Source of the DNA: Candidatus Melainabacteria bacterium
Lineage (GTDB): Bacteria > Cyanobacteriota > Vampirovibrionia > 2-02-FULL-35-15
Direction of reading: 5' to 3'
DNA length: 64,000 nt
Assembly (NCBI GenBank): GCA_016201905.1
Contig: JACQBQ010000010.1
Location: 69,184-133,183, forward strand
In this document: positions 13,175 through 31,349 of the stretch, piece after piece
Numbering within the stretch: the first letter of the stretch is position 1
Layout: the number at the start of each line of letters is the position of its first letter
Notes under the pieces: generated by a model
Told to the model about the DNA's origin: nothing
The model's input: the letters and a program-made list of their open reading frames with translations, nothing else
Database searches by the model: none
Position numbers and translations under genes: made by a program

Positions 13175-13188
13175 AATATAAAATTTCC

Positions 13189-14931: not shown

Positions 14932-15850
14932 TTTGCATGTCAGATAGTATTGCCAAACTTAGTTTTCCTGGCTCCAAAATGCTTGCCTCATAAGTTATTT
15001 TTTTTGTAACAGCAAACTCTGTGGTTTTATTAAGAATAGAAAATTGCCTTTTTAACATTTCAGGATTATAGAGATCTAATCGAAAAGAAGACTGTAACAA
15101 TTCAACAAGACTTTCTTGGGCTGACAATGGTTCAATTGAAACTTCTTTTACATTCTCAGATGGGTTTAAAAAGTAAATGTGAGAGAGCCTATACTCACCT
15201 GTAGAATATTGTCTTTGGGAAAGAGTTATCCTGCACTTTTCCGTCGGATCATCAATCTCAGCATCTGGATTTAAAAACTTTAATACTTCAGGCCAAAGCC
15301 CGACGTGTGGGGTACCACTACTTGTCCACACTTCATTATTTTTTAAAAAGATGGGGACTACATTGTCTGACAGTAAAGCTAATCCCTCTTTTATCAAGCC
15401 AGCTGTTATTGTAGATTTACCAAAACCACTTTTGCCAATAAATACAAGGACACCTTTTTTGCTTAGGACACTACTTGCATGAAGAGCCTCAATACCACTT
15501 AGATTTAAAGCTTTTGGAAGTACTTGTGTAAATAAAATATGCTTTACTGCTTCTGACTCATAATCATCAAAACACTTGTAATAAATGTACTTACTGTCAG
15601 GTGAAATTGCAAAATCTACTTTTTCATCAATAAAGTGAAGAACAAAGTAATCATTGTTTTTTTTTCCTGCTCTTAGACAGACATGACCATCTATCATGTG
15701 CCAGTCATGATACCAAAGTACATTGTCTGTAATATTTTCATGTTTTTTATCCCAGGGCAACACTCTTATATCAGGCTCTTTGAAGGTCTTCTCAAGCCCA
15801 GAAGCAATTTCCTCTTCCAGATCTATTGATAGCCCATAAACACTATACAT
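14897..15850 (-). CDS. HPr kinase/phosphorylase-like serine kinase (RiPP/lasso-associated HprK homolog)
   Basis: 317 aa with a P-loop GKSGFGKST resembling the HprK C-terminal domain. It sits immediately downstream of the candidate precursor. Confidence 0.6.
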   Translation of the reverse strand: MYSVYGLSIDLEEEIASGLEKTFKEPDIRVLPWDKKHENITDNVLWYHDWHMIDGHVCLRAGKKNNDYFVLHFIDEKVDFAISPDSKYIYYKCFDDYESEAVKHILFTQVLPKALNLSGIEALHASSVLSKKGVLVFIGKSGFGKSTITAGLIKEGLALLSDNVVPIFLKNNEVWTSSGTPHVGLWPEVLKFLNPDAEIDDPTEKCRITLSQRQYSTGEYRLSHIYFLNPSENVKEVSIEPLSAQESLVELLQSSFRLDLYNPEMLKRQFSILNKTTEFAVTKKITYEASILEPGKLSLAILSDMQIDKAERQLICN

Positions 15851-15861
15851 TTTTTTCTTAA

Positions 15862-16017
15862 TTAAGCGCTTCTTCTGGTAGTTTCTTTTCCCCTACTCCT
15901 TGTACCTTGAGTTAATTTTGCTATAGTTCCATACTTAATTAATACTGGTGTATTATATGGTTTTTTTTGGCCCTTGTTTAAGCTGGTATCTAAATTAGAT
16001 TTTGACTTGTTTTCCAT
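15862..16017 (-). CDS. Candidate lasso-peptide precursor (51 aa; not in the ORF track)
   Basis: Translation gives MENKSKSNLDTSLNKGQKKPYNTPVLIKYGTIAKLTQ|GTRSRGKETTRRSA. The leader matches YxxPxLx3Gx5Tx exactly. The core starts with Gly and has Glu at position 8. The ORF overlaps the 3' end of the cyclase gene by 23 nt in another frame. Confidence 0.5.
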   Translation of the reverse strand: MENKSKSNLDTSLNKGQKKPYNTPVLIKYGTIAKLTQGTRSRGKETTRRSA

Positions 16018-17962
16018 ATTTTTCAGTCCCCCTATGACTTATTATTCTACCAAAATTATTTCTTGCCCAATATTCAAGGCTAATAATCTGCCACATAATG
16101 TCGCTCCACGTAGAATCATCCAGGTTATTTGCATATTTTTGACAATATTGCTCATATGAATCTAAAACTTTTCCTTTATCTATTAACCCTATCTGATGTA
16201 AATATGAATCATTTAACAGTTCTTTCACTTCATTATGATTTTCATAAATAAGCAATTTATTAATTAATGAAGTAAAGTCAGCTTTATCCATTCTGTTTTT
16301 TATTTCAACTGGTAATAATTGTTTCATTGACTCTCTTAAAAAACCTTTTGGTTTCCATCCATACACAAGCATTTCTTCTGGTACACTTGACACAAACTCA
16401 ATTATTCTTCTATCACATAACGGGTGCCTAAGTTCAACTGTATTTGAACTGGCAGCCAATCTATCTAACAGCTCAAATCCACTGACTCTATAACCATTAA
16501 ATAATGAACTGTATGTTTCCTTGCGGCTTATTGTCTTAAATTTTTTGTTTTTAAGATACCAGGGTTCTTCTCTTAGCCTTTGAAAAAGATTTTCTCTGTG
16601 AGGCTGGTTAATCCAGTCATATGTTTTTATCGGACGAATAGTCCTATAAAGTTTTTTAAACCACCTTGGTAGCATTGAACGAAGTGAATTAAGCGACATT
16701 GACAAAACAAGTTTCAGCACAAGTGGATAAGAAGCTAGTTGATATTGTGAGTATGCATCAATAAATGCTAATCCTTGAGCAAATTTTCCTGTAAACAAAA
16801 GATCTGTTGCAAGATACATTGATGCATCAATGTAGTCATCTCCCCCTTCACCAGTAAAAATCACTTTTCTTCCTTCATTTTTTGCCAGGTCATAAACAGG
16901 TTTAGTTAGAATTATCCCTTCAACACTCCATAGTGCCTGACTTGCGTGTATAGCATCAGGTACTTCCCAGAGAGGTTTTGGTGCATGCGAATTAATCCGA
17001 TTTGATTTAATCTTATATTTTTTTTGTACTATATTTATAAAATCACTTTCATCAGCAGGTTTTGTATCAAAGACTGCAGAATACCCGGATGTTTCTACAT
17101 TGGTTTTCTTTTTTGATTTTAAATCATCAATTAATGCAAGTACCGAAGAAGAATCCAGCCCACCACTAAGTGTTATTCCAGGTTCACTATTTAATCTGAG
17201 CTTGGAAATCATTGATTTGGTAAAAACTTCCATAAAAGCTTCAGTATAATCTTCAATTTTTTTAAACTCATTTGTATAATTCAGATTGATATCCCAGTAT
17301 TGTCTAATTTTAAAGTCATCTTTTTTTACTGTCATGCAATGAGCTGGTCTAAGTTTGAAAATATTTTTAAATTCTGTTCTTTCTGAATTTTCAAAGTTGT
17401 TGGTTAAATAAAGTGCCATAGAATCTAAATCTGGCTCCTTTGGTATATCAGGATGTTTAAATAAAGGAATAGCGTCAGATGCAAATGCCAAAAACCTTTC
17501 ACACTTATAAAAGTAAAATGGCCTTACCCCTATAATATCTCTTGCACAAAAGAGCTGATTGTTTTTACTATCCCATATTGCAAAGGCAAAGTCACCTATT
17601 ATTTTTTTAAGACAGGCTTCTTTCCAGAGGAAATAAGAGTAAAGAACAATTGAAGCATCAGTTATAAGCTCTGCTTTTATTCCACATGACTTTAATTCTG
17701 AGCTCAGTTCATTTCTATTATCGATTCTTCCATCCATAACAAGTGTCAATCCTGTGTTTTTATCATGAAATGGTTGTCTTTCTATTTCTTGTTCAGTTGT
17801 AGTCCAGAAGGCTCTATGCGCCAGTCCAACAACCCCATTAACCCAAACATCTCTTGCATTCTGACCTCTATCTGAAAGGATTTTATCGTCTATAACTTTG
17901 TTAAGGACATTTATATCAAACTGTTCTCTGTCAAAATAAAAGATTCCTGTTATTGCACTCAT
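15995..17962 (-). CDS. Asparagine-synthetase-like protein; candidate lasso cyclase (C protein)
   Basis: 655 aa with the PP-loop SGGLDSS. The N-terminus is MSAITGI rather than the AsnB MCGI glutaminase nucleophile, as expected for an isopeptide-forming cyclase rather than a true AsnB. Confidence 0.7.
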   Translation of the reverse strand: MSAITGIFYFDREQFDINVLNKVIDDKILSDRGQNARDVWVNGVVGLAHRAFWTTTEQEIERQPFHDKNTGLTLVMDGRIDNRNELSSELKSCGIKAELITDASIVLYSYFLWKEACLKKIIGDFAFAIWDSKNNQLFCARDIIGVRPFYFYKCERFLAFASDAIPLFKHPDIPKEPDLDSMALYLTNNFENSERTEFKNIFKLRPAHCMTVKKDDFKIRQYWDINLNYTNEFKKIEDYTEAFMEVFTKSMISKLRLNSEPGITLSGGLDSSSVLALIDDLKSKKKTNVETSGYSAVFDTKPADESDFINIVQKKYKIKSNRINSHAPKPLWEVPDAIHASQALWSVEGIILTKPVYDLAKNEGRKVIFTGEGGDDYIDASMYLATDLLFTGKFAQGLAFIDAYSQYQLASYPLVLKLVLSMSLNSLRSMLPRWFKKLYRTIRPIKTYDWINQPHRENLFQRLREEPWYLKNKKFKTISRKETYSSLFNGYRVSGFELLDRLAASSNTVELRHPLCDRRIIEFVSSVPEEMLVYGWKPKGFLRESMKQLLPVEIKNRMDKADFTSLINKLLIYENHNEVKELLNDSYLHQIGLIDKGKVLDSYEQYCQKYANNLDDSTWSDIMWQIISLEYWARNNFGRIISHRGTEKYGKQVKI

Positions 17963-18912
17963 TGCTTTTCCAACTTTACCAAGCCTATATTGATTTGCTC
18001 ATTTAAGAAAGAAAGTATATCACCCTCACACTCTTCTTTTTTTATATCATATTCATTTAAGAGCATTTGGGTTATTTCTTTGATTTTAATTGTTTTTTTA
18101 GCTTGATTTAAAATATTTATTCCGATCTGGTCTGTTGCATAGCAAGATGAATCTTTAAAATTATAAATTAAAATCTGATTGCCCAGAGATCGCATGAAGT
18201 AGTCTCCAGTTGTTTTTATCAAAGAGTCCTGCGATAAATGAAAATGTTTATTTAATTTTCTTAAGCTAGTATTTATTTTTTTTCTGTGAATTGGCTTGTA
18301 AAGAGGTCTTGCTCTAAACCAGCCAGTTAAAACAGTTCTTGTAACTTTGCCGTATACCTTGTTTACTCTGTGCTCTAAATAAGGCGCTACTCTAAAAATC
18401 ACAGCATCACCAAAACCATTATTAATAACTTCTTTGACCAATTCTTTTGTTCTTGAATTACGAATTTGAATGGCTCCACCTATGTAAAAATCTGTACTTA
18501 GATTAATACTGATTGATATCATTCTGTTATTTGTTAAGTCGTCATGCCATTTGTCATATTGTTCTTTGTCCGGGATTTTACTGTAAACCCTGCCAGTAAA
18601 ACATCCGATTTTTTTACAGCCTGTGATTTGTTCTATAAACTTAAATAACTTTTCATCATTCATCAAGAAGTGAAGAAAGCCTAATATTTTTTCATCTTCA
18701 AATTTATAACCAACTGCTTCATCATCTCCAACTTTATATTTATCTTCCAAGAACTTCTCTTTCCTTAAGCAGTTCTGAATTAAGGACAGGAGATTAGGCT
18801 CTAAAAATCTTTTTAACTTTAAGCAATGATTTTCACTAAACTCACTTCGCAGTATTTCAAAATCAGACTCTATTTCTGAGATTAAAATACCTGATTTTGT
18901 TAATTTAACCAT
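17959..18912 (-). CDS. Prolyl-4-hydroxylase-like 2OG/Fe(II) oxygenase fused to a C-terminal PqqD-like RRE domain (paralog 1 of 5)
   Basis: WHDD...GGAIQI...FGDAVIFR...EHRV...GKVTRTVLTGWF fits the HxD...H...R 2OG-FeII_Oxy_3 pattern. The C-terminal ~85 aa (..NILNQAKKTIKIKEITQMLLNEYDIKKEECEGDILSFLNEQINIGLVK) is PqqD-like. Confidence 0.6.
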   Translation of the reverse strand: MVKLTKSGILISEIESDFEILRSEFSENHCLKLKRFLEPNLLSLIQNCLRKEKFLEDKYKVGDDEAVGYKFEDEKILGFLHFLMNDEKLFKFIEQITGCKKIGCFTGRVYSKIPDKEQYDKWHDDLTNNRMISISINLSTDFYIGGAIQIRNSRTKELVKEVINNGFGDAVIFRVAPYLEHRVNKVYGKVTRTVLTGWFRARPLYKPIHRKKINTSLRKLNKHFHLSQDSLIKTTGDYFMRSLGNQILIYNFKDSSCYATDQIGINILNQAKKTIKIKEITQMLLNEYDIKKEECEGDILSFLNEQINIGLVKLEKQ

Positions 18913-18923
18913 TTTAAATTGTT

Positions 18924-19892
18924 TTATCTCGTCATTTCAGTGCATACAAGCCTATTTATCTTCATTTGTCTTATTAGATTTCTTAAATCTATTTCACATT
19001 CTTTTCCACCTACATCATATTCTTTTAAAATTAAATTTCTTATTTCAAAAAACGATTTTGGTCTGTCAAGTATTTTAAGGATTTTTCCACCAATCGAGTC
19101 CAATCCAAAACATACTCCAGTCACAGGATTAAATACAAGCACTTTATCTTTTGAATCTTGAAAGAATAAGTTCTGACTTCTCGACAATACTATATCAGTA
19201 TTATATTTTTTAGCTTCGCTCAGATTCCTATCAAATGTAATACTTCTTGAACAGTCTTCAAAAACAGGTTTGTAGATTGGTTTTGATCTAAACCATCCCG
19301 CAAAAAATGTTCTGCTTGCTTTTCCAGTTACCTCAGTAAGTCTATGTACTAACTTTGGAGATATTCTAAAAATAACTGCATCACCAAAACCAGTATTTGC
19401 AACCTCCTTTACGACTTTTCCTATGTTTATATCTTTGAGCTGAAGAATTCCTCCTTCATAAGCTTTAGTACTTAGATTTATACTCATTGCAATCATCCTA
19501 TTATCGACCAAGTCATTGTGCCAAGCATCTCTATGACCAGTGCCTGGGCTCATACGGCAAATCCTGCCTGTAAAAGAACCAATCTTACAGCAACCTGTAA
19601 CTTTCTCAATAACCTGAAAGAGTTTTTTGTCATTCACAAAAAACCTAAGCAAGCATTCAAGATTTTTATCTTTTAGCCTGCACATTGGATTGTCCTGATT
19701 GCTTGCAGGATAATTCACAGTAAAAAAATCATCACATTCATCAATTTTTAATTGTATAAGTCCAAGTAAATCCTTCTCAAGGAAATTAGTTAATTTTATA
19801 CAATGCTTTTTATCAAATTCTTTTTTCAAAAGATTAAGATCTTTTTCATTTGCTGTTAAGTTAAAACCTGAACTGGTAATTTGGATATTCAT
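18924..19892 (-). CDS. 2OG/Fe(II) oxygenase-RRE fusion (paralog 2)
   Basis: AWHNDLVDNRM, GGILQL, FGDAVIFRISPKLVHRLTEV and GKASRTFFAGWF, with a C-terminal PqqD-like segment. Confidence 0.6.
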   Translation of the reverse strand: MNIQITSSGFNLTANEKDLNLLKKEFDKKHCIKLTNFLEKDLLGLIQLKIDECDDFFTVNYPASNQDNPMCRLKDKNLECLLRFFVNDKKLFQVIEKVTGCCKIGSFTGRICRMSPGTGHRDAWHNDLVDNRMIAMSINLSTKAYEGGILQLKDINIGKVVKEVANTGFGDAVIFRISPKLVHRLTEVTGKASRTFFAGWFRSKPIYKPVFEDCSRSITFDRNLSEAKKYNTDIVLSRSQNLFFQDSKDKVLVFNPVTGVCFGLDSIGGKILKILDRPKSFFEIRNLILKEYDVGGKECEIDLRNLIRQMKINRLVCTEMTR

Positions 19893-19907
19893 ATCAATAC
19901 TTAAAAA

Positions 19908-20873
19908 TTATTCAATACTTACAAGCCCATTCTCTTCCATCTCTTTAAGAAGATATAACAAATCTTTTTCACATTGCTCAGTTTCTATATCAAATTCTTT
20001 TAAAAGCACATTTTTAACTTCACTGACAGTAAATGGCTTGTCAATGACTTGCAATACTCTTTCTCCAACAGCATTCAAGGCAAAACAGCTAGTACTAAAT
20101 GGATTAAACACATGAAGTCGTTCATTAAAATATTTGGAAAATAAATTCCTGTTCTTTTTTACAGAGGCAGATAACTGTACTTGTGGCAATTTTTCGTAGC
20201 TATTGTCATTTGTGCGATTTTTGGCAACTGGCTTGAACACTGGTTTATAAAAAGGTTCCGAAAAAAACCAGCCTGCATAAGCAGTTCTATGAGCTTTTCC
20301 TTTTACTTCAGTTACTCTATGATCCAGGTAATTTGAAATCCTAAATATTACTGCATCTCCAAAGCCAGTATTCTTGACTTCCTGAATAATTTTGTCCGTA
20401 GTAAAATCCTTAATTTGCAGGCTTCCACCTTCGTACACTTCAGTACTTAGATTCACACTCATTGCAATCATCCTATTGTCCACATTGTCATCATGCCATG
20501 CATCAAGGGTGTCAGCATCCGGGCTTAATCGGTATATTCTCCCGCTAAAGCAGCCTATTTTCTTTGAAGAAGTGATTTTTTCAATAAGCTCAAAAAACTT
20601 TGGATCATTTGTCAAGAATTCCAAGAGTCCTATTGCCTGTTTATCCTTAAGTCTAAGTTCTTTTGAATCAAGACCTATCTTTTTCTTATAACTTTTTGAG
20701 TAAAAGTCTCCAATTTTTATTTTCTCTTGAATTAATCCTAGAATTTCTTCATCAAGTAATTTTGGTAGCTTAACCCAGTGATTTTCACTAAAGTGCTTGA
20801 GCAAATCATCTATGTCTTTTTCTGTATAAGAACATTTTATTCCTTCTCTTTTTAATTGAATTATTGACTGCAT
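19908..20873 (-). CDS. 2OG/Fe(II) oxygenase-RRE fusion (paralog 3)
   Basis: AWHDDNVDNRM, GGSLQI, FGDAVIFRISNYLDHRVTEV and GKAHRTAYAGWF, with a C-terminal PqqD-like segment. Confidence 0.6.
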   Translation of the reverse strand: MQSIIQLKREGIKCSYTEKDIDDLLKHFSENHWVKLPKLLDEEILGLIQEKIKIGDFYSKSYKKKIGLDSKELRLKDKQAIGLLEFLTNDPKFFELIEKITSSKKIGCFSGRIYRLSPDADTLDAWHDDNVDNRMIAMSVNLSTEVYEGGSLQIKDFTTDKIIQEVKNTGFGDAVIFRISNYLDHRVTEVKGKAHRTAYAGWFFSEPFYKPVFKPVAKNRTNDNSYEKLPQVQLSASVKKNRNLFSKYFNERLHVFNPFSTSCFALNAVGERVLQVIDKPFTVSEVKNVLLKEFDIETEQCEKDLLYLLKEMEENGLVSIE

Positions 20874-20888
20874 ATATTTTTGATTTTT

Positions 20889-21824
20889 TTAGTTTTTAAT
20901 TGTAAGTAATTTATTTACCTCCATTTCATTGAACAATGAAATTAAATCCTTTTCAAATATTTCTTCACCAATATCATATTCACTAGTAACTATTTTTTTT
21001 ATCTCGCTAAACATTATTGGTTTTTTAACTATTTCCCAGAGCCTTGTTCCCAGGTTCTCAAGACCAAATCCTGTTTCTTCAACTGGATTAAATATAAAGA
21101 GTTTGTTCTCAATATATTCTTCCATTAACCCTTTCTCTAACATTATGATTGAACCACTTTTAATCTTTGATTTTTTATTATTAACTAATAAGGTTTGATT
21201 ATTATCAAAGGATTTTAAGTCGATATGTGAACTAAGCCAACCTGCAAGTGCAATCTTTGGGATATTTCCTTCGACTTTAGTTAGCATATGTTGATAGTCA
21301 GTTGAAATAGAAAATATAATAGCATCTCCGGGTACTGTATTTTTTATCTCTTGAATTATTTTTTTTGTTTTTTTATCTCTAATTAGCAGTACTCCACCAG
21401 AATATATATCAGAACTCAGATTTATGCTTATGGTAAGTACACGATGCCATACAACATCAGAATGCCACATGTCATAGTGATCTTCACCAGGAATCATTTT
21501 GTAAACTCTTCCGCTAAAATACCTGATTTTTTTTAATCCTGTTATTTGTTCAATTGCTTTTAAAAATTTTTCATCATTAACTATTTCATGAAGTATCTGG
21601 TTCATTTCAGGATCTTTCATGACTAAATCTTTGCCAGCATCCTTGTGATCAAGTGTTATAAAATCAGCTTTATTAATTCTTTCTTGAATATCCTTTAAAA
21701 GGTCAGAAACTATAAGATTTGAAAGTTTAATATGTAAGTTTTTTTTAAATTCTTCTTGAAGTTTCTGAAGTTGAGTAGAACCTTCTGAGACATCGGTACC
21801 ATTTTTTGTAATTTGAATTTTCAT
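20889..21824 (-). CDS. 2OG/Fe(II) oxygenase-RRE fusion (paralog 4, most divergent)
   Basis: MWHSDVVWHRV, GGVLLI, PGDAIIFSISTDYQHMLTKV and a PqqD-like C-terminus. Lys replaces the downstream Arg. Confidence 0.55.
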   Translation of the reverse strand: MKIQITKNGTDVSEGSTQLQKLQEEFKKNLHIKLSNLIVSDLLKDIQERINKADFITLDHKDAGKDLVMKDPEMNQILHEIVNDEKFLKAIEQITGLKKIRYFSGRVYKMIPGEDHYDMWHSDVVWHRVLTISINLSSDIYSGGVLLIRDKKTKKIIQEIKNTVPGDAIIFSISTDYQHMLTKVEGNIPKIALAGWLSSHIDLKSFDNNQTLLVNNKKSKIKSGSIIMLEKGLMEEYIENKLFIFNPVEETGFGLENLGTRLWEIVKKPIMFSEIKKIVTSEYDIGEEIFEKDLISLFNEMEVNKLLTIKN

Positions 21825-22798
21825 AAGACTAAAGCAGCTTTTTTAATTGTTATTAGTTTGTTTTCTTGAAATTCATTAAGAATCGCAAATAAATCTTTTT
21901 TACAACTTTCTCTACTTATCTCGTATGTATTTATGAAGTGATTTTCAATATCTCTAAATGCTTGTGGTTTTTCAAGAAGATTTAATATATCAGCTCCAAC
22001 TTGATTTGTACTGTAACATGCATCATGTTCAAGATTCAAAACCATTGTTTCATTTTCAAAAGCTCTTGCAAAAGTGCTGTCATTTAAAGTAAGTATTGAG
22101 TTGTTATCAACAGAAAAAGTTGATTTTTTTTTCTCTTTACTTTTTTGTTCTATGTTACTTTCAAACTCTGGCTTAAAAGCAGGTTCTGATCGGAACCAGC
22201 CAGGAAAAGCAGTTTTAGCAACAGTTCCTGTTACTTCTGTAACCATATGCTCAAGATTCGGAGCAATTCTAAAAATTACACAGTCACCATATCCAATATT
22301 TGCTATTTCGTGTAATATCTCTTTCGTATTTCTATTTCTTATTTTAAGTATTCCACCGGAATAAATTCCCTTACTCAAGTTTATGCTTATGGATGCAAGT
22401 TGATTTTCACTGATATCCTGATGCCAATTATCATAATGACCTAAATTAGGAACAAGGCTATAAACACCACCGCTAAAGATTCGAATCTTTTCACAACCTG
22501 TTATTTGCTCTACCAGCTCAAATAAAAACGGATCGTTCATTAAAAACTCAAGGAGTGTGTTTACTGTTTCATCATTTAAACGATAATCAACTGCATCTGA
22601 CTCTGCAAGTTTATACTTATCTTCATAGAAACCCACATCATCCATTTTTTCCTGAACAAGCTCTAAAAGTTTGGGCTCTAAAAACTGTGGAAGCACTATA
22701 CAGTGTTGCCTATCGTAGAGTTTTTGCAAAGAAAATAAGTCTTCTTTAGTACCCAAAAACTTTGTACTAGTTTTCGTTGCTTGAATTATTGGTTTCAT
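21821..22798 (-). CDS. 2OG/Fe(II) oxygenase-RRE fusion (paralog 5)
   Basis: NWHQDISENQL, GGILKI, YGDCVIFRIAPNLEHMVTEV and GTVAKTAFPGWF, with a C-terminal PqqD-like segment. Confidence 0.6.
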   Translation of the reverse strand: MKPIIQATKTSTKFLGTKEDLFSLQKLYDRQHCIVLPQFLEPKLLELVQEKMDDVGFYEDKYKLAESDAVDYRLNDETVNTLLEFLMNDPFLFELVEQITGCEKIRIFSGGVYSLVPNLGHYDNWHQDISENQLASISINLSKGIYSGGILKIRNRNTKEILHEIANIGYGDCVIFRIAPNLEHMVTEVTGTVAKTAFPGWFRSEPAFKPEFESNIEQKSKEKKKSTFSVDNNSILTLNDSTFARAFENETMVLNLEHDACYSTNQVGADILNLLEKPQAFRDIENHFINTYEISRESCKKDLFAILNEFQENKLITIKKAALVL

Positions 22799-24315
22799 TG
22801 TTTTATCCTATCCAGACTTTCTAGAAGTTCTGAAAAAATATTTATTACTTCCTCAGGAAAAACCTTAACTGATTCTAGTAATTCACTCAATGCTTGCTTA
22901 ACTTTTTTTTCTTTTAAATAAAGCAGTGCTAGGTGAATATAAATCATAGTACTGTAGTGTCCGCCTGCAATACCTATTTTATAGCTACTGATTGCTTTTG
23001 TAGTAAGATTTTTCTTTGCATAAAGTTTGGCAAGTTTTACATGCACTTCAAAATAATCAGGATCGGTTAAAAAATTTTCCTTGGCTCTGCTTAATATAAA
23101 GGCATTTAAGGATCTGTACCCTTTAAGAGATAATTTTAGTGACTTTTCAAATAAATTTATTGCTTCATTAGTCTTATTTTGCTTTTTTTGTATATCTCCA
23201 AGAGCATGATAAGCATCTGGAAGGTTTTCATTTAATCTTATGGAATTGCAAATAAAGTCCTCTGCCTCTTTCCAGTTTTTCTTTTTCATTGCAATTAGTC
23301 CTAAGATTAAATGTGCATTAGCGTCTTCAGGATCTAGTGAAAGAACTTTATTTACTTCGATTTCTGCCTTGCGGAAAAGCTTATCTTCAAAATATACATA
23401 TGCCAGATTATTGTAAGCAGTCCTATATGAAGGATCTATATTTAGTGCCTGCTTATAATAACTTTGGCTTTCTTGTACTTTGTTCATATTTTGGTTTAAA
23501 AGCGCAAGGTGGAAGCAAGGGACTGGAGAGGCAGGCATAAGATCTTTAGCTTCAATATATTTTGCCTCAGCTAAAAGAAACTTATCATCGTTTGCCAATA
23601 TAGATGCTTCTTTTACCATTTCCATCATTCTTAAGGATGAGCTGTTGCCATTTTTTATTCTAAGAGCAAGTTCATCTCCAAGATATTTCCATTTCAATGG
23701 CGTATATCCACCTTCTACAGAATATGCAATAGTAATAATATCTGAATGTATTTTTTTTAGATTTATCCTATTTAAAAGTTCATTGGGCCAACACCAGGGA
23801 ATCTCAGAATGTTTATCAGTCTTGCCATACGACACGTGTGGAATAATCATATAGTCAACATCAATGTCCAGTAAAACATCTTCAGTAATCTCTGGTATAG
23901 AATCCAAAGTGCATATCCTGAGAGGTTTATTGAGAACAAAAGCAGAAATTTCATCTTTATCTATTTTTATTTTTTTAGAACTTTCAGGATAGCGTCTGAT
24001 TATTCTTTTCAAGTGTTGTAATATAGCTTTCTTATTTTTTTGTGATTCCATGCTCTCATCCGGTACAATCCAAAAGACTTCTTTTAAAATATCTTCTTCA
24101 AGCGCTCTGCATATAAAATTGGCAATTGTAATTTGAGAACCTTTTTTTATAAACCACATATCGTGATGCGCATCGATATGAACCAATCTTCTATTTTTTA
24201 CTCCGGATTCTTTCCACACATAGTATGAACGATCATGATTTTCCATGATATGAACACTAGCACTACGCTGGTTTGCATATTCTGATTTTATTTCTTTTTT
24301 GGAAGCAGTACTCAA
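22795..24315 (-). CDS. Two-domain protein: N-terminal ureohydrolase (arginase/deacetylase)-fold-like domain and C-terminal TPR repeats
   Basis: H27, D48-A-H50-H-D52 (a DAHxD-like motif) and D150-I-D152-V-D154, with arginase-like spacing (about 21 and about 102 residues). The C-terminal ~280 aa are TPR-like (..AYNNLAYVYFEDKLFRKAE..). TTG start with an AAGGAG RBS. Confidence 0.45.
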   Translation of the reverse strand: MSTASKKEIKSEYANQRSASVHIMENHDRSYYVWKESGVKNRRLVHIDAHHDMWFIKKGSQITIANFICRALEEDILKEVFWIVPDESMESQKNKKAILQHLKRIIRRYPESSKKIKIDKDEISAFVLNKPLRICTLDSIPEITEDVLLDIDVDYMIIPHVSYGKTDKHSEIPWCWPNELLNRINLKKIHSDIITIAYSVEGGYTPLKWKYLGDELALRIKNGNSSSLRMMEMVKEASILANDDKFLLAEAKYIEAKDLMPASPVPCFHLALLNQNMNKVQESQSYYKQALNIDPSYRTAYNNLAYVYFEDKLFRKAEIEVNKVLSLDPEDANAHLILGLIAMKKKNWKEAEDFICNSIRLNENLPDAYHALGDIQKKQNKTNEAINLFEKSLKLSLKGYRSLNAFILSRAKENFLTDPDYFEVHVKLAKLYAKKNLTTKAISSYKIGIAGGHYSTMIYIHLALLYLKEKKVKQALSELLESVKVFPEEVINIFSELLESLDRIKQ

Positions 24316-24362
24316 GCTATTAACTTAACTCCTTTCCAATCAAATGAAAAGATTTAATTAAT

Positions 24363-24653
24363 TTAGGCATTTTTCACTTCGACTAAGCCTGATTCTTCTA
24401 AATTTTTTACAAGTTCTATTAAATCGCATTCAAGTTGCCTGGCATCTACATCATACAATTCAAGTATGTAACTTTTTACTTCTTTTAATTTCTTAGGTGT
24501 TTGAATTATATTCCATACTTCTGTACCAAGATTATCCAAGCCATAATAAACGCCATCTTTATGATTTAATATAACTGACTCTCCAGATAAATCACAAGAG
24601 AGCTGATTACTGGAAACAGTTAAAATTGAATCTTCAGAAATTATGTTTTGCAT
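24363..24653 (-). CDS. Standalone PqqD-family protein (RiPP recognition element; lasso B1-like)
   Basis: 96 aa: ..ILNHKDGVYYGLDNLGTEVWNIIQTPKKLKEVKSYILELYDVDARQLECDLIELVKNLEESGLV. Confidence 0.7.
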   Translation of the reverse strand: MQNIISEDSILTVSSNQLSCDLSGESVILNHKDGVYYGLDNLGTEVWNIIQTPKKLKEVKSYILELYDVDARQLECDLIELVKNLEESGLVEVKNA

Positions 24654-24733: not shown

Positions 24734-26170
24734 CTACTCAATCAATCTTTCATTAAGCAGGTAAGAGGCTATACATTTAGATAGTGCTTCATAGCCATAT
24801 CTATTAAAATGCCCCCAATCAAGTGGTCCATGTACTAGTTTTTTACTTGCAGCAAGTTTTATAGATGGGCGAGTATCTAGAAATTTCACCGCTAAGCTAT
24901 TAGATATTTGACTAATATGATTTGCTATTAAGTTACTCCTAGCTGTTACATAATATGGAGTATAAACACTTCCTTCTTTAATGGAAAAATTGCTATAAGA
25001 ACCATATTTTATATTAGTTTTTAAAGAGTAAGAAGAAAAAAGAGATGGTATGTAAACCACTATAATTTTCGAATTTGGGAAGTGGTTTACTAAAAAGTTC
25101 AGACTATATTTCAATATTTTAAACGATGTTTCTAATTCATTTTTAGTTAAGCCCCGACCAGCTAAATCATCCACATTAAGACTAATCGCATATTTTACAT
25201 CATCACTTAATTTATTAACTTTTTCACTATTTATAAAAGTACAGTCTGGTAGTGAGAAAATCTTACCATTTACCTCCACTACGTTATGAGATAAGCTGTT
25301 TTCACATTTTGGAATTTTAAATTCCTCTGTTATTTCTTTTTTCATTATGTTTGAGAGATTAAATCTAAACAAATTAATAAAAAAACTGGTTGCTATAAAA
25401 TTATTGTTTGTAATAGATTTTTCATATTTAATTTTTTCAAGAAGGGAACGACTAAAAGCCAGACTGTCTGCAGTTATATTAACCCTTTCCTTATTGACTA
25501 AATTATCCTCTAAATCATTCCCTTCAAAAAAATAAAAAAGTATTACTTCTGGAGCTTCTATATGAAACCTTGATCTCAGCATTTCTATACTATAAACAAT
25601 ATTTTTTACAGCAGTAGGGCTTCCAGCACCACCAACCCCAAAAGAAATAACATCTTTTTTCAAGAGGTCATGCAAAACATGTGCTGAGTAATATTTTGGA
25701 TTTTTATTTTTATCCACTTCAAAGAACCAATCACCCTCACCATCTGCATAAGAGTCGCCAATGATGGCTATATATTCTTTAGGAATTAAATGTTTCTTTG
25801 AGGATTGGCATAATATACTGGAAGGATGCATAAGATGATCCTGCAATTTAAGTGAAAAGAATGGTAATGATAATGGAAATAAAAGTTCAAGAATGAATAC
25901 AGCTAGTAAAAGGGAAGAGACACCTAACCCAACTCTTACAGAAAATTCATAAAAGAATTTTCTTTTCTTATTTAGAACAATATTCAATCCACAAATAAGA
26001 ACCATTAGGTCAAATGAGTAAATTATTAGTTTTGTAAAAACAGATTTTATTTTTCCATCTTCATACAACAAGCTATTTATAGTAGATTCATTTAATAAGA
26101 AGGAAACAATGATTAGCATCAATCCTATTAGAAGCTCGATTTTTCTTTGATTTTTCTTTATTAATTCCAT
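24734..26170 (-). CDS. Membrane-anchored SGNH/GDSL-like hydrolase
   Basis: 478 aa with about 3 N-terminal TM helices, a block I motif IAIIGDSYADGEG and a block III motif FFEGNDL. Confidence 0.45.
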   Translation of the reverse strand: MELIKKNQRKIELLIGLMLIIVSFLLNESTINSLLYEDGKIKSVFTKLIIYSFDLMVLICGLNIVLNKKRKFFYEFSVRVGLGVSSLLLAVFILELLFPLSLPFFSLKLQDHLMHPSSILCQSSKKHLIPKEYIAIIGDSYADGEGDWFFEVDKNKNPKYYSAHVLHDLLKKDVISFGVGGAGSPTAVKNIVYSIEMLRSRFHIEAPEVILFYFFEGNDLEDNLVNKERVNITADSLAFSRSLLEKIKYEKSITNNNFIATSFFINLFRFNLSNIMKKEITEEFKIPKCENSLSHNVVEVNGKIFSLPDCTFINSEKVNKLSDDVKYAISLNVDDLAGRGLTKNELETSFKILKYSLNFLVNHFPNSKIIVVYIPSLFSSYSLKTNIKYGSYSNFSIKEGSVYTPYYVTARSNLIANHISQISNSLAVKFLDTRPSIKLAASKKLVHGPLDWGHFNRYGYEALSKCIASYLLNERLIE

Positions 26171-26360: not shown

Positions 26361-28028
26361 TTATAGTTTGTAAAAAAAGTAAGGAGTATCTTCTATGTGT
26401 TTCCAGCCAAATCTGGAGGAATAACCAGGTGCTCTTCCAGCAATTAAAATCTTTGCACCTGCATTTTTAAATACATTTAAAACACTTGTCTTCAAAGTAT
26501 TATCAGCTATCCAAAAATTACTAATATCTTCATCAGAGGGTATCTCAGCTATAATATGTAACTTTGCTAATCGTGCCCAGTAATAATCATCATAAATCCC
26601 TATAACACCAACTTTTTCACCTTCTTTAATGCCTGCTTTTTGTAACCCTTTAGCTACACGTAAATTTACTTTTAATTCCTGAGCTAACGGACGATTTTCA
26701 AGTAAATCTTTTGAAAGGATACCCCCCAGAACCATAGAAAACATTGAAACCAATACTAAAGATTTTTTTACTGACTGCACTTCTTCTACCAGTGGTAATT
26801 TTAAAGCAGAAAATAAACCAAGCAAAAAAATCACCACATAAGCACCAAGATACCTAAACTCTACATGTACTAAAGAATACATAAGCATCACAAATATAGG
26901 GACTGTAAGCATTACCCAGTTTTCAAGCAAATCTTTAATTACTTTCAATTTTCTTCCACTTAAAACCAAAAGAGCCAGATAAGAAGTAAGCAAAACAATT
27001 TGCATTAAAAAAAACAGATAAAAATATTCTCTTAAATTAATTAATATTGCTTTTATTTGTCCAATTAAATCAAAATAAGGTTTACTCCCCTGACACCAAT
27101 AGGAAGTATCATATACAAGCGGATAAGTCACATTAAAAGGAGTAGAATATTCGAAAACTGTAGGATCATTAAATAGAACTCTAAGCGGATGAGTAAGGTT
27201 ACTACAGCCCGGAAAACCATTTTCAAAACATTCACATACATTCCTATCAGCGTACCAGTGATAGTTTAATTTTCCTGTTTCACCATAAGTAAAATATCCT
27301 CTTGATTTAGATAGAGAAAAAACAAATGGACCTGCTATCAGCAAAAAACAAGCTAAAGCCACTACAGATTTTAAAAACTTATATTTTTTGTCTGGTACTG
27401 CAAAAAAACTTAAAATAATAAAAACAAATGCAATAGGAAACATAGCTTCTTTTGTAAGGTAACCCAGTCCAAGGACTAATCCAAGGAGTACAAAATTAAC
27501 CCAGTTTTTCAATCCTACTTTTATTTTAAGTAATAGTCCACTGGCTAAATACACAAACCCAGATAGAAGCATATCTGGAGTTACTCCTGATATGGTTATT
27601 AAGTTTGTTGAAGACCAGATAAAAAGACTATACCCAAGACACATCCACATCCAGACTTCTTCCTCTTGTTTATCTTCAATAAATCTTCGGAAAAAGAATT
27701 CAAAACAAAATAAAGCAAAAGCATAAGTAAAAAAGTTTACTATATGGACAACTATAATTTCTGAATACAAACCAGGCTTCAGAAGAAAAAGAAAAAAACC
27801 CTGGATAATAGCATAAATAGGATTCCAGACCCCGTTAACAAGTGCCCCAAAATCACCACGAAAAACTGCATCCCCAATATCCAGAAATGGTATGCTGTCA
27901 GATTCAATAAAATATCTTAAAAGCCAGGTATGAATAAGTCCAATAAAAATAGCTAAGAATAAAAAAAATGCTCTAATTTGTTTAATTGAAAACTTATAAA
28001 ACATAATAGTAATAAGGTGTATCATCAA
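26361..28028 (-). CDS. Polytopic membrane protein, GT-C-fold glycosyltransferase-like (PMT/ArnT-like), paralog 1 of 8
   Basis: 555 aa with about 11-13 TM helices, a first-loop motif IPFLDIGDAVF and a conserved ~130-aa C-terminal soluble domain (..YWARLAKLHIIAEIP..). Confidence 0.45.
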   Translation of the reverse strand: MMIHLITIMFYKFSIKQIRAFFLFLAIFIGLIHTWLLRYFIESDSIPFLDIGDAVFRGDFGALVNGVWNPIYAIIQGFFLFLLKPGLYSEIIVVHIVNFFTYAFALFCFEFFFRRFIEDKQEEEVWMWMCLGYSLFIWSSTNLITISGVTPDMLLSGFVYLASGLLLKIKVGLKNWVNFVLLGLVLGLGYLTKEAMFPIAFVFIILSFFAVPDKKYKFLKSVVALACFLLIAGPFVFSLSKSRGYFTYGETGKLNYHWYADRNVCECFENGFPGCSNLTHPLRVLFNDPTVFEYSTPFNVTYPLVYDTSYWCQGSKPYFDLIGQIKAILINLREYFYLFFLMQIVLLTSYLALLVLSGRKLKVIKDLLENWVMLTVPIFVMLMYSLVHVEFRYLGAYVVIFLLGLFSALKLPLVEEVQSVKKSLVLVSMFSMVLGGILSKDLLENRPLAQELKVNLRVAKGLQKAGIKEGEKVGVIGIYDDYYWARLAKLHIIAEIPSDEDISNFWIADNTLKTSVLNVFKNAGAKILIAGRAPGYSSRFGWKHIEDTPYFFYKL

Positions 28029-29661
28029 TATTTACCCAGCCAAACTTTGATGCACCAGAAGGTGCTCTACCAGCTACAACTATTTTCATATCAAATTTTC
28101 TAAATGCATTTAGTGCTTCTATTCTAAGTGAATTATCCGCTGCCCAAAAATTATTTATCTCTTCTTCGGATGGGACTTCAGCTATAATTCTTACTTTTAG
28201 TAACCTAGCCCAGTAGTAATCATCATAAATCCCGATAACACCAACTTTTTCTCCCTGCTTAATACCAATATTTTTAAAATAATCTGCCACCTGCCAATTA
28301 ACAGCTAAACTTTTGCCTTCTTCTCTATATTCAAGTAAATCTTTTGAAAATATGCTTGTTATGAGCATCATGGCACAAGCTACTAAAGTAACTTTTGCAA
28401 GTATCTCTTGCAAGTTTTTTACATGAGAGAACTGTAAGGCAGAAAACAATCCCAGCCAAAAGACTACCCAGAAAGCAGCAATGTACCTATACTCTACATG
28501 AATAGTAAAATACATTATCATTGAAAATAGTGAAGGAAAAATTAATACCCATTGTTTATTTATATCTTTTAAACACAGCCATCTTTTCTTACCGATAAAA
28601 AAAAGACTAACTAAAGCCAATAACATTCCTTGCATATTAAAAAGTAAATTAAAATATTCTTTGGTATTTTCTATTAATGCTTTTAATTGTCCTTTTATAT
28701 CAAAATAAGGAACCGTCCCACCTTCAAACCAATATGAGGCATCAAAAACAATGGGGTATGTAACTTTAAGCGGCTCTGAATATTCTAAAATTATAGGGTC
28801 TTTAAAGATTACATTTAATGGATGTAGTAATTTTTTACAGTAGGGAAAATCTTTTTTCCAGATCTTGCACGTATTGCTATTTGTATGCCATGCATAATTT
28901 ATAACCCCAATATCACCAAATGTTAGCCTTCCTTTATTCTTAGAAAGCAAAATTATATATGGAGTACTGATTAGAAAAAAAGATAGAAGAAATATTGATA
29001 AATAAAAAACCCGTTTTGGGATTTTACAAGTAGCAAAAAAAACAATTCCAAAGAAAATAAAAGCCACTGGAAACATTGCTGCTTTTGACAAATATCCCAG
29101 TCCAAGCACTATACCTAGCAAACAAAAAACAAGCCAATTTAAATTACCAGATTTTACTTTAAGTAAAATCCCAGCTGCAAGATAAAAGAATAACGCTACC
29201 AACATATCTGGTGTTACTGCTGAAATGGTAATCATGTTCATTGACGACCATATAAATAAGGTATAACCAAGGCACATTAAAGTCCATTCAGGTAAAAGTA
29301 GATGCTTTTCCTCTTTTTCTGCCCCTTTGTAAACTCTAACTAACTGCATGATAAAAAAATCAAAAGTAAAAAATGTTAAGAGACATATAAAGAAGTTAAT
29401 AAAATGTACAAGTGTTGATTCCCAAATATAGGATGGTTTAAAGAAATAAAAAAATAGTCCTATAATTAAAGAATACAATGGACTCCAAAAACCGTTTATA
29501 AGAGCTCTCCAGTTTCCTTTCAGAATCTCATCTGCAGTATCAAAATACGAAATGCAGTCAGAGTCAATAACATTTCTAGTAAGCCATGCATGGGAAAGAC
29601 CTATCACAAAAGTTGCAAGAAAAAACAATATTCTGATTTTTATGAAATTATTTATCTTCAT
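27994..29661 (-). CDS. GT-C-fold glycosyltransferase-like membrane protein, paralog 2
   Basis: 555 aa with loop motif ISYFDTADEIL and the same architecture and C-terminal domain as paralog 1. Confidence 0.45.
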   Translation of the reverse strand: MKINNFIKIRILFFLATFVIGLSHAWLTRNVIDSDCISYFDTADEILKGNWRALINGFWSPLYSLIIGLFFYFFKPSYIWESTLVHFINFFICLLTFFTFDFFIMQLVRVYKGAEKEEKHLLLPEWTLMCLGYTLFIWSSMNMITISAVTPDMLVALFFYLAAGILLKVKSGNLNWLVFCLLGIVLGLGYLSKAAMFPVAFIFFGIVFFATCKIPKRVFYLSIFLLSFFLISTPYIILLSKNKGRLTFGDIGVINYAWHTNSNTCKIWKKDFPYCKKLLHPLNVIFKDPIILEYSEPLKVTYPIVFDASYWFEGGTVPYFDIKGQLKALIENTKEYFNLLFNMQGMLLALVSLFFIGKKRWLCLKDINKQWVLIFPSLFSMIMYFTIHVEYRYIAAFWVVFWLGLFSALQFSHVKNLQEILAKVTLVACAMMLITSIFSKDLLEYREEGKSLAVNWQVADYFKNIGIKQGEKVGVIGIYDDYYWARLLKVRIIAEVPSEEEINNFWAADNSLRIEALNAFRKFDMKIVVAGRAPSGASKFGWVNIDDTPYYYYVL

Positions 29662-31349
29662 TGTAGTTTATAAAAATAGTAAGAAGTTCCATTTATATTC
29701 TCCCATTTAGCATTTGAAGCATACGATGGGATTTTTTCAGTAACAACTGTTTTTATACCATATTGTTTTAGTGTTTTAAAAACCTGAGATTTAACATGAT
29801 CACTTGCTGCCCAAAACTCATAAACTGGCTCATCAAAGATCTCAGCAATAATCTGAACTTTTAATAATCTAGCCCAATATAAATGATCATAATAATTTCC
29901 AATAATTGCAACCTTATCTCTCTTTTTAATTCCTGCTTTTTCTAACTTTTCTGCTATTTGCCAGTCTATAATTTCATCTTTTGCTGCCTGATAATTTTCT
30001 TCTAAATCTTTAGAAAAGACAGACATAATGTTTAAAGAAAACACCAAAACAACTGCTAAAAGTGATGTAACCCTTTTTACATTACTAAAATACTTCAATT
30101 TTACTGATGAAAAGAGTACTAACCAGAATACTACCAGGAAGGCTCCAATATATCTGGACTCTAAATGCACAAGCAGGTATATAAGTACTGGTATAACTGC
30201 AGGTATAAACAGTAACCATTTCCTGCGTGCTTCTCTGAAAAATTCTACTTTTCTTTCCTGCAAAAAAAACAATATTAAAAACAAAACAATTAAAACATTT
30301 TGATCATAAAGAAACAATTTAAACAATTCTCTTATATTTTTTACTAAAGCTATAATTTGTCCCTTAATATCAAAATAAGGAGTAGTTCCCTCACTCCAGT
30401 AAGACGGATCATGTATAAGAGGATACGTTACAGGTAATGGGTAAGAATATTCGATAAGGCGAGGCTCATCGTAGATTTCCCTGACAGGGTGCACAAGTTT
30501 CTTACAACCAGGAAAACCTCTGTGAATATAATTACAGGGATTAGGATTTATATACCAATGATAATTTAATTTTCCAGTCTCTCCAAAAGTGAAATAACCT
30601 TTTTCTTTGGATAAAGCGATGATAAGAGGACTTGAAATTACTACAAATGTAAATAAAGCCACAATCATTTTTAATAATCCTGCTTTGGACTTATAAACAG
30701 AAACAAAACCTGCAAAAAGAAAAATAAAAGCCATTAAAAAAAATACTTCCTTTGTGAAATAGCCAAGTCCCAGTACAACACCCAGCATAATGAAATTAGC
30801 CAGATTTAAACTACCTGAATTAATCCTAAGTAAAATCCCAAAAGCCAAATATATAAATGCTGTTACAAAAACATCAGGAGTTATTCTCGATGTATGAAGC
30901 ATATTCATAGAAGACCAGATAAAAAGAGAGTATCCAATAAGAGTTAGAGTCTCTTCTGAAAGTAAGTAAGAATTGTCTTTAATAGAATGAAGATTGTTCT
31001 TTTTATAAGATACAATGAATTGAGAAAGAAAAAAATCAAATGCTAAGAAAGACAGCATGTAAATAGAAAAATTCGCAAAGTGTACAATGGTAGACTCCAT
31101 CTGATAAGAAGGTTTAAATAAAAACAAAAACAAACCTTGAACAATAGCATACAGAGGGCTCCAGATACCATTAACAAGAGCCTCCCATCTTCCCTGAAAA
31201 ACAAGATCTCCTATATCTAGATACGGTATACCATCTCCTTCTATATAAGATCTCAACAAATAGCTGTGAAATACTCCGACAACAATAGCAAATAGCATAT
31301 AAAAAAATCTTATGCGAAAATTTAAAATCTTAAAATAGGATGAGTCCAT
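29658..31349 (-). CDS. GT-C-fold glycosyltransferase-like membrane protein, paralog 3
   Basis: 563 aa with loop motif IPYLDIGDLVF. Confidence 0.45.
   Translation of the reverse strand: MDSSYFKILNFRIRFFYMLFAIVVGVFHSYLLRSYIEGDGIPYLDIGDLVFQGRWEALVNGIWSPLYAIVQGLFLFLFKPSYQMESTIVHFANFSIYMLSFLAFDFFLSQFIVSYKKNNLHSIKDNSYLLSEETLTLIGYSLFIWSSMNMLHTSRITPDVFVTAFIYLAFGILLRINSGSLNLANFIMLGVVLGLGYFTKEVFFLMAFIFLFAGFVSVYKSKAGLLKMIVALFTFVVISSPLIIALSKEKGYFTFGETGKLNYHWYINPNPCNYIHRGFPGCKKLVHPVREIYDEPRLIEYSYPLPVTYPLIHDPSYWSEGTTPYFDIKGQIIALVKNIRELFKLFLYDQNVLIVLFLILFFLQERKVEFFREARRKWLLFIPAVIPVLIYLLVHLESRYIGAFLVVFWLVLFSSVKLKYFSNVKRVTSLLAVVLVFSLNIMSVFSKDLEENYQAAKDEIIDWQIAEKLEKAGIKKRDKVAIIGNYYDHLYWARLLKVQIIAEIFDEPVYEFWAASDHVKSQVFKTLKQYGIKTVVTEKIPSYASNAKWENINGTSYYFYKLQ

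Follow-up and report, generated by a model that had tools for sequence, protein, structure and literature searches.

A TPR-fused candidate peptide arginase in a kinase-type lasso-peptide cluster of Candidatus Melainabacteria

The locus and its gene cluster

The window analysed here is a stretch of 64,000 nucleotides from a metagenome-assembled genome (MAG) of Candidatus Melainabacteria (assembly GCA_016201905.1, contig JACQBQ010000010.1, positions 69,184 to 133,183 of the forward strand). Its subject is a single protein, a candidate peptide arginase fused to tetratricopeptide repeats (TPR), whose gene sits among those for a lasso peptide, one of the peptides that are made on ribosomes and modified after translation (RiPPs). 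Translation of the target open reading frame (ORF; Table 1) starts at a TTG, 12 nt downstream of an in-frame stop, and yields 506 amino acids. A later start, the ATG at M24, is excluded because residues 20-24 make up the conserved first strand. In GenBank the protein is MBI3589992.1 and its sole annotation is 'tetratricopeptide repeat protein'.

The lasso genes extend over 11399-24653, all on the same minus strand as the target. The precursor carries the leader motif YNTPVLIKYGTIAKLTQ, which is canonical for lasso peptides (Tyr at -17, Pro at -14, Leu at -12 and Thr at -2, in agreement with the pattern YxxPxLxxxGxxxxxTx), and it scores 22.4 bits on NF033521 (lasso_leader_L3), over the cut-off of 19. 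The predicted core, GTRSRGKETTRRSA, contains four Arg; it starts with GTRSRGKE and has a Glu at position 8, within the 7-9 range for the acidic residue, so that a ring from G1 to E8 is likely. The cyclase passes Pfam Asn_synthase and reaches 418.9 bits on NF033535, under the cut-off of 525. By its gene content, which includes an HPr-kinase-like protein, this is a lasso-peptide cluster of the kinase type. A preliminary description of the locus, made from the sequence, had announced a RiPP cluster with four Arg in the core; this stands, and can now be made more specific. Two overlaps suggest translational coupling in one operon: the precursor ORF begins 23 nt within the 3' end of the cyclase gene (15995-16017), and the target stop codon overlaps by 4 nt the start of the first of five genes (22795-22798) that code for oxygenases of the 2-oxoglutarate (2OG) and Fe(II) type fused to PqqD. 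Upstream of the target lies a stand-alone PqqD, a RiPP recognition element (RRE) known in lasso clusters as B1. As for B2, the transglutaminase-like leader peptidase, none was detected in the 64-kb window, either by tblastn or by running a hidden Markov model of 17 related B2 sequences against the six-frame translation (best E=0.8). Related arginase-containing lasso clusters do encode B2.

Table 1. Features of the target gene, of the lasso cluster and of the adjoining genes (positions in the window)
Feature	Position	Strand	Basis
Target, whole ORF: peptide-arginase-like domain and TPR domain	22795..24315	-	Full-length AlphaFold2 model
Catalytic domain with predicted ureohydrolase fold, residues ~20-222	23650..24258	-	AlphaFold2; Foldseek; profile against PDB; NF052474 under its cut-off
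TPR domain, residues ~225-505	22801..23643	-	Pfam; helices in model; Foldseek
E25-N26-H27; H27 = OspR His12 (MnA ligand), N26 = position of OspR Glu11	24235..24243	-	HMMER alignment of IMENHDRSYYVW with OspR YIMEEHNEAFFIW; roles from PMC10028609
D48-A-H50-H-D52 (DXHXD motif) = OspR D39/H41/D43 (bridging / MnB / MnA ligand)	24160..24174	-	Invariant; alignment
D150-I-D152-V-D154 (LDIDxDY motif); D152/D154 = OspR D165/D167 (bridging / MnB ligand)	23854..23868	-	Invariant; alignment
S199-V-E201-G-G-Y-T-P loop; S199 = OspR Ser264 = position of arginase-1 Glu277	23698..23721	-	Alignment; PMC10028609, Figure 6 legend
ABC exporter	11399-13198	-	Domain search
NTP_transf_5::methyltransferase fusion	13189-14931	-	Domain search
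HPr-kinase-like protein typical of the kinase-type lasso subtype	14897-15850	-	Pfam Hpr_kinase_C E=8e-5; accompanies cyclase in related loci
Lasso precursor, 51 aa (core codons 15865-15906)	15862-16017	-	Leader pattern; lasso_leader_L3
Lasso cyclase (C)	15995-17962	-	Pfam Asn_synthase, GATase_7; NCBIfam lasso isopeptide-bond-forming cyclase E=4e-125
Five tandem 2OG-Fe(II) oxygenase::PqqD fusions	17959-18912, 18924-19892, 19908-20873, 20889-21824, 21821-22798	-	Domain search
Stand-alone PqqD/RRE (lasso B1), 47 nt upstream of target	24363-24653	-	Pfam PqqD E=4.5e-12; NCBIfam lasso PqqD chaperone E=1.4e-16
Membrane-protein paralogues	26361-28028, 27994-29661, 29658-31349, 32722-34410, 35522-37198, 37202-38920, 40430-41695, 43180-44865
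SGNH/GDSL-like genes interleaved with the membrane-protein paralogues	24734-26170, 31351-32703, 34462-35532, 39073-40455

Fold and active site of the catalytic domain

Sequence and fold searches point to the same relative. With the single target sequence, phmmer retrieved one enzyme only from all PDB chains, OspR (8BRP, 'Peptide arginase', E=1.9e-7), and a profile built from 32 homologues of the target brought the match to E=5.5e-15, at an identity of only ~15-17% between target and OspR. The AlphaFold2 model of residues 1-232 (pLDDT 91, pTM 0.88), compared with the PDB by Foldseek, again gave the chains of 8BRP as the top three matches (E ~3e-7, probability 1.00, query-normalised TM-score 0.56-0.58). 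After OspR, the 50 best matches contained only agmatinases, arginases, proclavaminate amidinohydrolase, guanidino-acid hydrolases, formiminoglutamase and guanidine hydrolases; all 50 are ureohydrolases, 49 of them at E<=0.001. OspR is, by sequence and by fold, the closest solved relative of the target domain, and the structure predicted for the N-terminal domain is a genuine ureohydrolase fold. The preliminary description had proposed a metal site of this type; the comparisons of fold and sequence agree with it, the nearest characterised relative being a peptide arginase.

The alignment extends to the individual ligands of the metal. The Mn2 cluster of OspR is bound by H12, D39/H41/D43 and D165/D167, and activity is lost in the D39N/H41Q/D43N mutant (PMC10028609). 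When residues are paired by the HMMER alignment, after correction for a +1 offset in the PDB chain numbering, six residues of the target correspond one-to-one to these Mn ligands. The motifs are where the preliminary description had placed them in the 506-residue translation, and over the alignment of 32 homologues D48, H50, D52, D150, D152 and D154 are invariant, with H27 conserved in at least 90%; the motifs are no product of chance. One detail has to be amended: in the third motif D152 and D154 are ligands, while D150 is the conserved first Asp of LDIDxDY and is not a listed metal ligand; PF12640 has this motif as LDIDLDYFSC. At the position of the proton-shuttle His of conventional arginases the target has Ile, in the segment TIANFI, exactly as OspR does. 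E201, two residues after the Ser that takes the position of arginase-1 Glu277, is conserved in at least 90% of the target family, where OspR has Leu. A comparison of the family profile with human arginase-1 by hhalign aligned only DAHxD (VDAHTD), with negligible probability, and is a pointer only.

What follows the catalytic domain is, as the preliminary description had it, a TPR module. Pfam gives strong TPR matches over residues ~270-400 (TPR_2 at E=1e-22, among others), and the full-length model, confident as one body (pLDDT 92.4, pTM 0.87), displays paired helices over residues 225-505, i.e. about seven helix pairs and a capping helix. Submitted to Foldseek, this part matches the TPR superhelices of CTPR, O-GlcNAc transferase (OGT) and SPINDLY, while a fold search with the full-length model returned generic TPR proteins only.

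Relatives and arginine in lasso cores

The target belongs to a sizeable family. A word-indexed protein search gave 54 homologues, and when 1.84 billion cluster representatives (50% identity) were scanned exhaustively, 666 matched at E<=1e-3 and 444 at E<=1e-10; the majority have 480-550 amino acids, the length of the arginase-TPR fusion. We retrieved 80 genomic loci, from Acidobacteriota, deltaproteobacterial MAGs, Nitrospira, Omnitrophota, Elusimicrobiota and others, over which the family spans 25-56% identity. The TPR part is in frame with the arginase domain in nearly all of them; the few split genes are taken as frameshift errors because the contig names suggest long-read assemblies. With the window counted in, 27 loci form a close clade (at least 42% identity); 22 of them have a lasso cyclase no more than 10 kb away, the remainder being short contigs and one locus of Ramlibacter albus. 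Genes are mostly arranged as B1-(B2)-arginase::TPR-C-A-K, or else the arginase gene comes after K, and the adjacency of PqqD and arginase-TPR genes recurs across related loci. The place of the gene in lasso clusters is conserved. Of all loci, only that of Ramlibacter albus comes from a named, cultured strain; there the homologue is followed by a 1980-residue protein with a TPS (two-partner secretion) domain. In some relatives glycosyltransferases (GT41 OGT-like, GT4 and GT2) are the direct neighbours of the arginase::TPR gene (L001 8230-9963; L002 4351-8316), which hints at glycosylated products.

A distant clade (25-35% identity) has no cyclase. Its members adjoin PqqD, S24-like and U32 peptidases, several radical S-adenosylmethionine (SAM) enzymes and NTP_transf_5, and they accompany a conserved precursor family of the form M..KFKPxxxRVKLNPEQAVLxCxCY followed by a Cys-rich core which also contains Arg. 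Examples come from Omnitrophota and Verrucomicrobiota (L047 11475-11678; L048 9607-15085; L050 9487-17482; L065 7935-15892); this radical-SAM RiPP cluster type matches none that is known to us.

If the enzyme modifies Arg, its gene should accompany cores that contain this residue. The lasso leader pattern served to extract precursors from the loci with an arginase, and these were set against those of 80 further kinase-type lasso loci from metagenomes (L086-L165), collected with the kinase gene as bait; this bait was a 6-sequence kinase alignment, a 12-sequence alignment being too divergent as a seed. Arg is present in all of the 18 distinct cores from arginase-containing loci and in 18 of 59 from loci without a detected arginase (Fisher p=5.6e-8), or in 4 of 12 when the comparison is restricted to strict negatives, i.e. 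contigs of at least 6 kb with B1, C and K (p=8.5e-5), both p-values being optimistic because related sequences are treated as independent and the two sets of loci were sampled differently. The presence of the gene tracks Arg-containing cores. Arg amounts to 11.2% of core residues with the arginase and 2.5% where none was detected, against 7.3% and 8.1% of leader residues, respectively, with a mean locus GC content of 0.59 and 0.57; base composition does not explain the difference in the cores because leader Arg and GC are alike in both sets. Two more candidate cores, spotted by eye between the cyclase and kinase genes (L019, L007), both contain Arg.

The cores have peculiarities of their own. 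Those of the arginase-free kinase-type loci (L086-L165) nearly always end in ...K-T-x, presumably the target of the kinase, and they are depleted in Arg compared with their own leaders. Several arginase-linked cores start with Arg or Lys (RGRTGGD..., RGMSGLD..., KGSGDTHAD...; L006 ~7537; L011 ~5814; L025 ~4261 and ~4746), residues that are unusual at the first position of a lasso ring; in L011 the sole Arg of the core is residue 1.

Back in the window, the lasso cluster is bordered (24734-44865) by eight paralogous polytopic membrane proteins of ~420-570 amino acids, without a match in Pfam, NCBIfam or the PDB, interleaved with SGNH/GDSL-like genes. Within the cluster, the five 2OG oxygenase::PqqD paralogues are 34-46% identical to one another; the predicted core, with its four Arg and single Lys, has exactly five basic residues. 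The methyltransferase part of the NTP_transf_5 fusion resembles an archaeal protein-lysine N-methyltransferase (NF041081, E=1.7e-35, under cut-off), and could methylate Lys or a newly made ornithine.

Proposed function and its alternatives

Taken together, these observations lead us to propose, with a probability of about 0.7, that the target is an Mn-dependent peptide arginase, a divergent TPR-fused branch of UPF0489/PF12640 that would convert Arg of the core GTRSRGKETTRRSA to ornithine and urea. In this reaction one or more Arg in the core of the lasso precursor would have their guanidino group hydrolysed. Because the adjacency to PqqD is conserved, the enzyme would probably act in a leader-dependent way on a linear precursor held by the RRE, before cyclisation. 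The TPR superhelix may bind the substrate in place of the dimerisation domain of OspR: it would grip the leader, alone or in complex with PqqD (B1), and pass the core on to the active site, a role comparable to that of the TPRs in OGT and SPINDLY. Ornithine might then be modified further, more speculatively, by the five RRE-fused 2OG oxygenases or by the Lys-methyltransferase-like domain. There is precedent for this in biphenomycin, where the arginase BipC is followed by the ornithine hydroxylase BipG (PMC12707348), and in the N-methyl-ornithine of enteropeptin (PMC12703449). The idea, already present in the preliminary description, of a peptide arginase editing an Arg-rich RiPP core is thus supported by the computational tests. 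That description had cited resemblance to UPF0489 and to OspR as two leads; both apply, yet they are a single one, since UPF0489/PF12640 is the peptide-arginase family itself (PMC10028609; PMC12703449), all of whose characterised members named in PMC12703449 and PMC12707348 are peptide arginases.

The target shares with these enzymes (OspR, FlmR, OhkR, BipC, PbsE) the alpha/beta/alpha ureohydrolase fold, the six aligned Mn ligands (H; DxHxD; DxD in LDIDxDY), the Ile of TIANFI, Ser at the position of arginase-1 Glu277, the GYTP loop and the association with a RiPP cluster whose core contains Arg. It differs in its C-terminal ~280 residues with seven TPR repeats, in its family-specific Glu201 and in the class of RiPP served: lasso and radical-SAM peptides here, against NHLP, Nif11, SCIFF, SCCRRSCN, DD(I/V)LF and biphenomycin for PF12640 enzymes (PMC12703449 links peptide arginases to these and to MGXRRSSE precursors). 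KgrD of the enteropeptin pathway, a PF00491-type enzyme, also converts Arg to ornithine on a RiPP before N-methylation, and the target cluster has a methyltransferase as well, but KgrD, a conventional arginase by family, requires a thiomorpholine-modified substrate (PMC12703449), and the target is nearer to PF12640. The target resembles conventional arginases and agmatinases (PF00491) in fold and in its pattern of ligands for a binuclear metal site, DAHHD fitting DAHxD exactly, with sequence similarity confined to that motif; it lacks GGDHS and SxDxDxxDP, no residues can be recognised as binders of the alpha-amino and carboxylate groups, and the oligomerisation elements are different. OGT and SPINDLY also combine a TPR superhelix binding extended peptides with a catalytic domain, but they have their domains in the opposite order and a catalytic part unrelated to that of the target, so the analogy is mechanistic only.

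A number of points weigh against this proposal. The co-location of the metal ligands rests on alignment, not on distances in the model. The thresholds of the pertinent families are all missed: that of PF12640 (27 bits) with 14.9 bits for the full protein (E=0.036) and 17.8 for the domain alone; that of PF00491 (22 bits) with 16.1-17.6 bits (Arginase, E=0.008); and that of NF052474, 'peptide arginase, FlmR/OhkR family' (350), with 46.4 bits (E=3.5e-12) over residues 61-156 only. PF12640 does match 21 of the 32 family members at E<=0.01 (best 4e-9), and by sequence the target is homologous to the NF052474 proteins yet outside that narrow model. Two hallmarks are missing as well. Glu11 of OspR, proposed to stabilise the guanidine (PMC10028609), is Asn26 in the target and N, D, K or H across its family, so that the EEH(N/H)EAF motif of PF12640 becomes M-E-N-H-D-R-S-Y; Glu201 may have taken over from it. 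The homodimerisation domain of OspR (Ser170-Ser234, after DxD), thought to form the substrate cleft, is absent, with ~25 residues (155-179) at a site where OspR has ~77. It is because of these missed thresholds and hallmarks that we file the target as a divergent sister branch. To this must be added the limits of the Arg statistics and the Arg-bearing cores of arginase-free loci, both given above, and five arginase-containing cyclase loci without a confident precursor: in L005 the candidate is truncated by a frameshift, in L007 the candidate found by eye has no acidic residue in the ring range, and in L024, L026 and L081 neither the leader pattern nor manual inspection found any. Relaxing the leader pattern yielded noise only. 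Finally, the homologue of Ramlibacter albus GTP1 (L023 10010-17522) has no lasso genes within 10 kb.

Other readings keep the ureohydrolase chemistry and alter its object. The enzyme might accept only an Arg that has already been modified (hydroxy-Arg from the 2OG oxygenases, for instance), or the folded mature lasso. Five RRE-fused oxygenases directly downstream invite this thought, as do peptide arginases of the Ps_BipC/PbsE type, which take only pre-hydroxylated substrates (PMC12707348; PMC12703449), and the target has no RRE of its own. However, only 5 of the ~27 arginase-containing loci show an oxygenase match and the conserved adjacency of PqqD suggests leader-dependent action; we hold this variant, different in timing and substrate state and not in chemistry, to be a minor though real possibility. 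A substrate outside the peptide altogether appears quite improbable. An agmatinase, guanidino-acid hydrolase or free arginase might be encoded beside the cluster by chance or as a source of supply, and the Foldseek matches to agmatinases and guanidino-hydrolases are almost equal to those of OspR, yet the sequence matches a peptide arginase only, the Ile of TIANFI is OspR-like, and both the placement in lasso and radical-SAM RiPP operons and the TPR fusion are conserved.

The remaining alternatives give up hydrolysis of Arg. The domain could be a scaffold binding Arg-rich peptides, with the TPR part organising a maturation complex or conferring immunity or export; fusion to TPR, lack of a Glu11 equivalent and scores under the family cut-offs would suit such a role, but ligands that are (nearly) invariant over 25-56% identity are what an active enzyme, not a pseudoenzyme, would be expected to retain, and we consider it improbable. 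The preliminary description had also considered a deacetylase, a member of the histone deacetylase (HDAC)-like branch of the arginase/deacetylase superfamily. The superfamily is common to both and acetylated lasso peptides exist. Against this, no HDAC appears among the 50 best Foldseek matches in the PDB, Pfam PF00850 does not match the target, six His/Asp ligands fit a binuclear Mn site and not the single-Zn Asp-His-Asp site, and there is no acetyltransferase in the cluster, so that a deacetylase or deacylase can be set aside with little hesitation. The same holds for replacement of B2 by the target, which the lack of a detectable leader peptidase in the window might bring to mind: proteins of the target type co-occur with B2 in related loci, on which ground we rejected this candidate, and we know of no ureohydrolase that cleaves peptide bonds.

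Seven peptide arginases had been shown active by late 2025 (PMC12703449). Literature searches on lasso with arginase, ornithine, PF12640 or tetratricopeptide returned no report of an arginase::TPR enzyme type in lasso clusters, and the peptide-arginase literature found does not mention lasso clusters or TPR fusions. Ornithine is not among the lasso modifications of a 2026 review, where deimination of the citrulassin type is the only editing of an Arg side chain (PMC13352647), nor does it appear in the literature found. Citrulassin-type peptides owe their citrulline to a peptidyl arginine deiminase, of another family, with a mass change of +1 Da against -42 Da for ornithine. More tentatively, and at a good deal less than even odds, arginase::TPR could be a portable tailoring module with a PqqD/RRE partner, serving both kinase-type lasso peptides and the radical-SAM RiPPs of Omnitrophota and Verrucomicrobiota, its superhelix delivering the substrate in place of a dimer cleft. 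Here it would make ornithine for the oxygenases or the methyltransferase to hydroxylate or methylate, and the cluster would yield a heavily modified lasso peptide, the first of its kind to bear ornithine. Were this so, ornithine at position 1 in the relatives whose core starts with Arg (L006, L011) might alter ring closure.

For the preferred reading, that of a peptide arginase acting on the lasso core, the consequences are practical as well as biological. For genome mining, the arginase gene would serve as a predictor, its presence announcing Arg in the core and its absence an Arg-depleted core. Peptide arginases are sought as tools for the ribosomal installation of ornithine, and this branch would offer a solution to substrate binding based on a monomer plus TPR, together with a natural test of the need for Glu11. 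It would also provide an entry to ornithine-containing lasso peptides.

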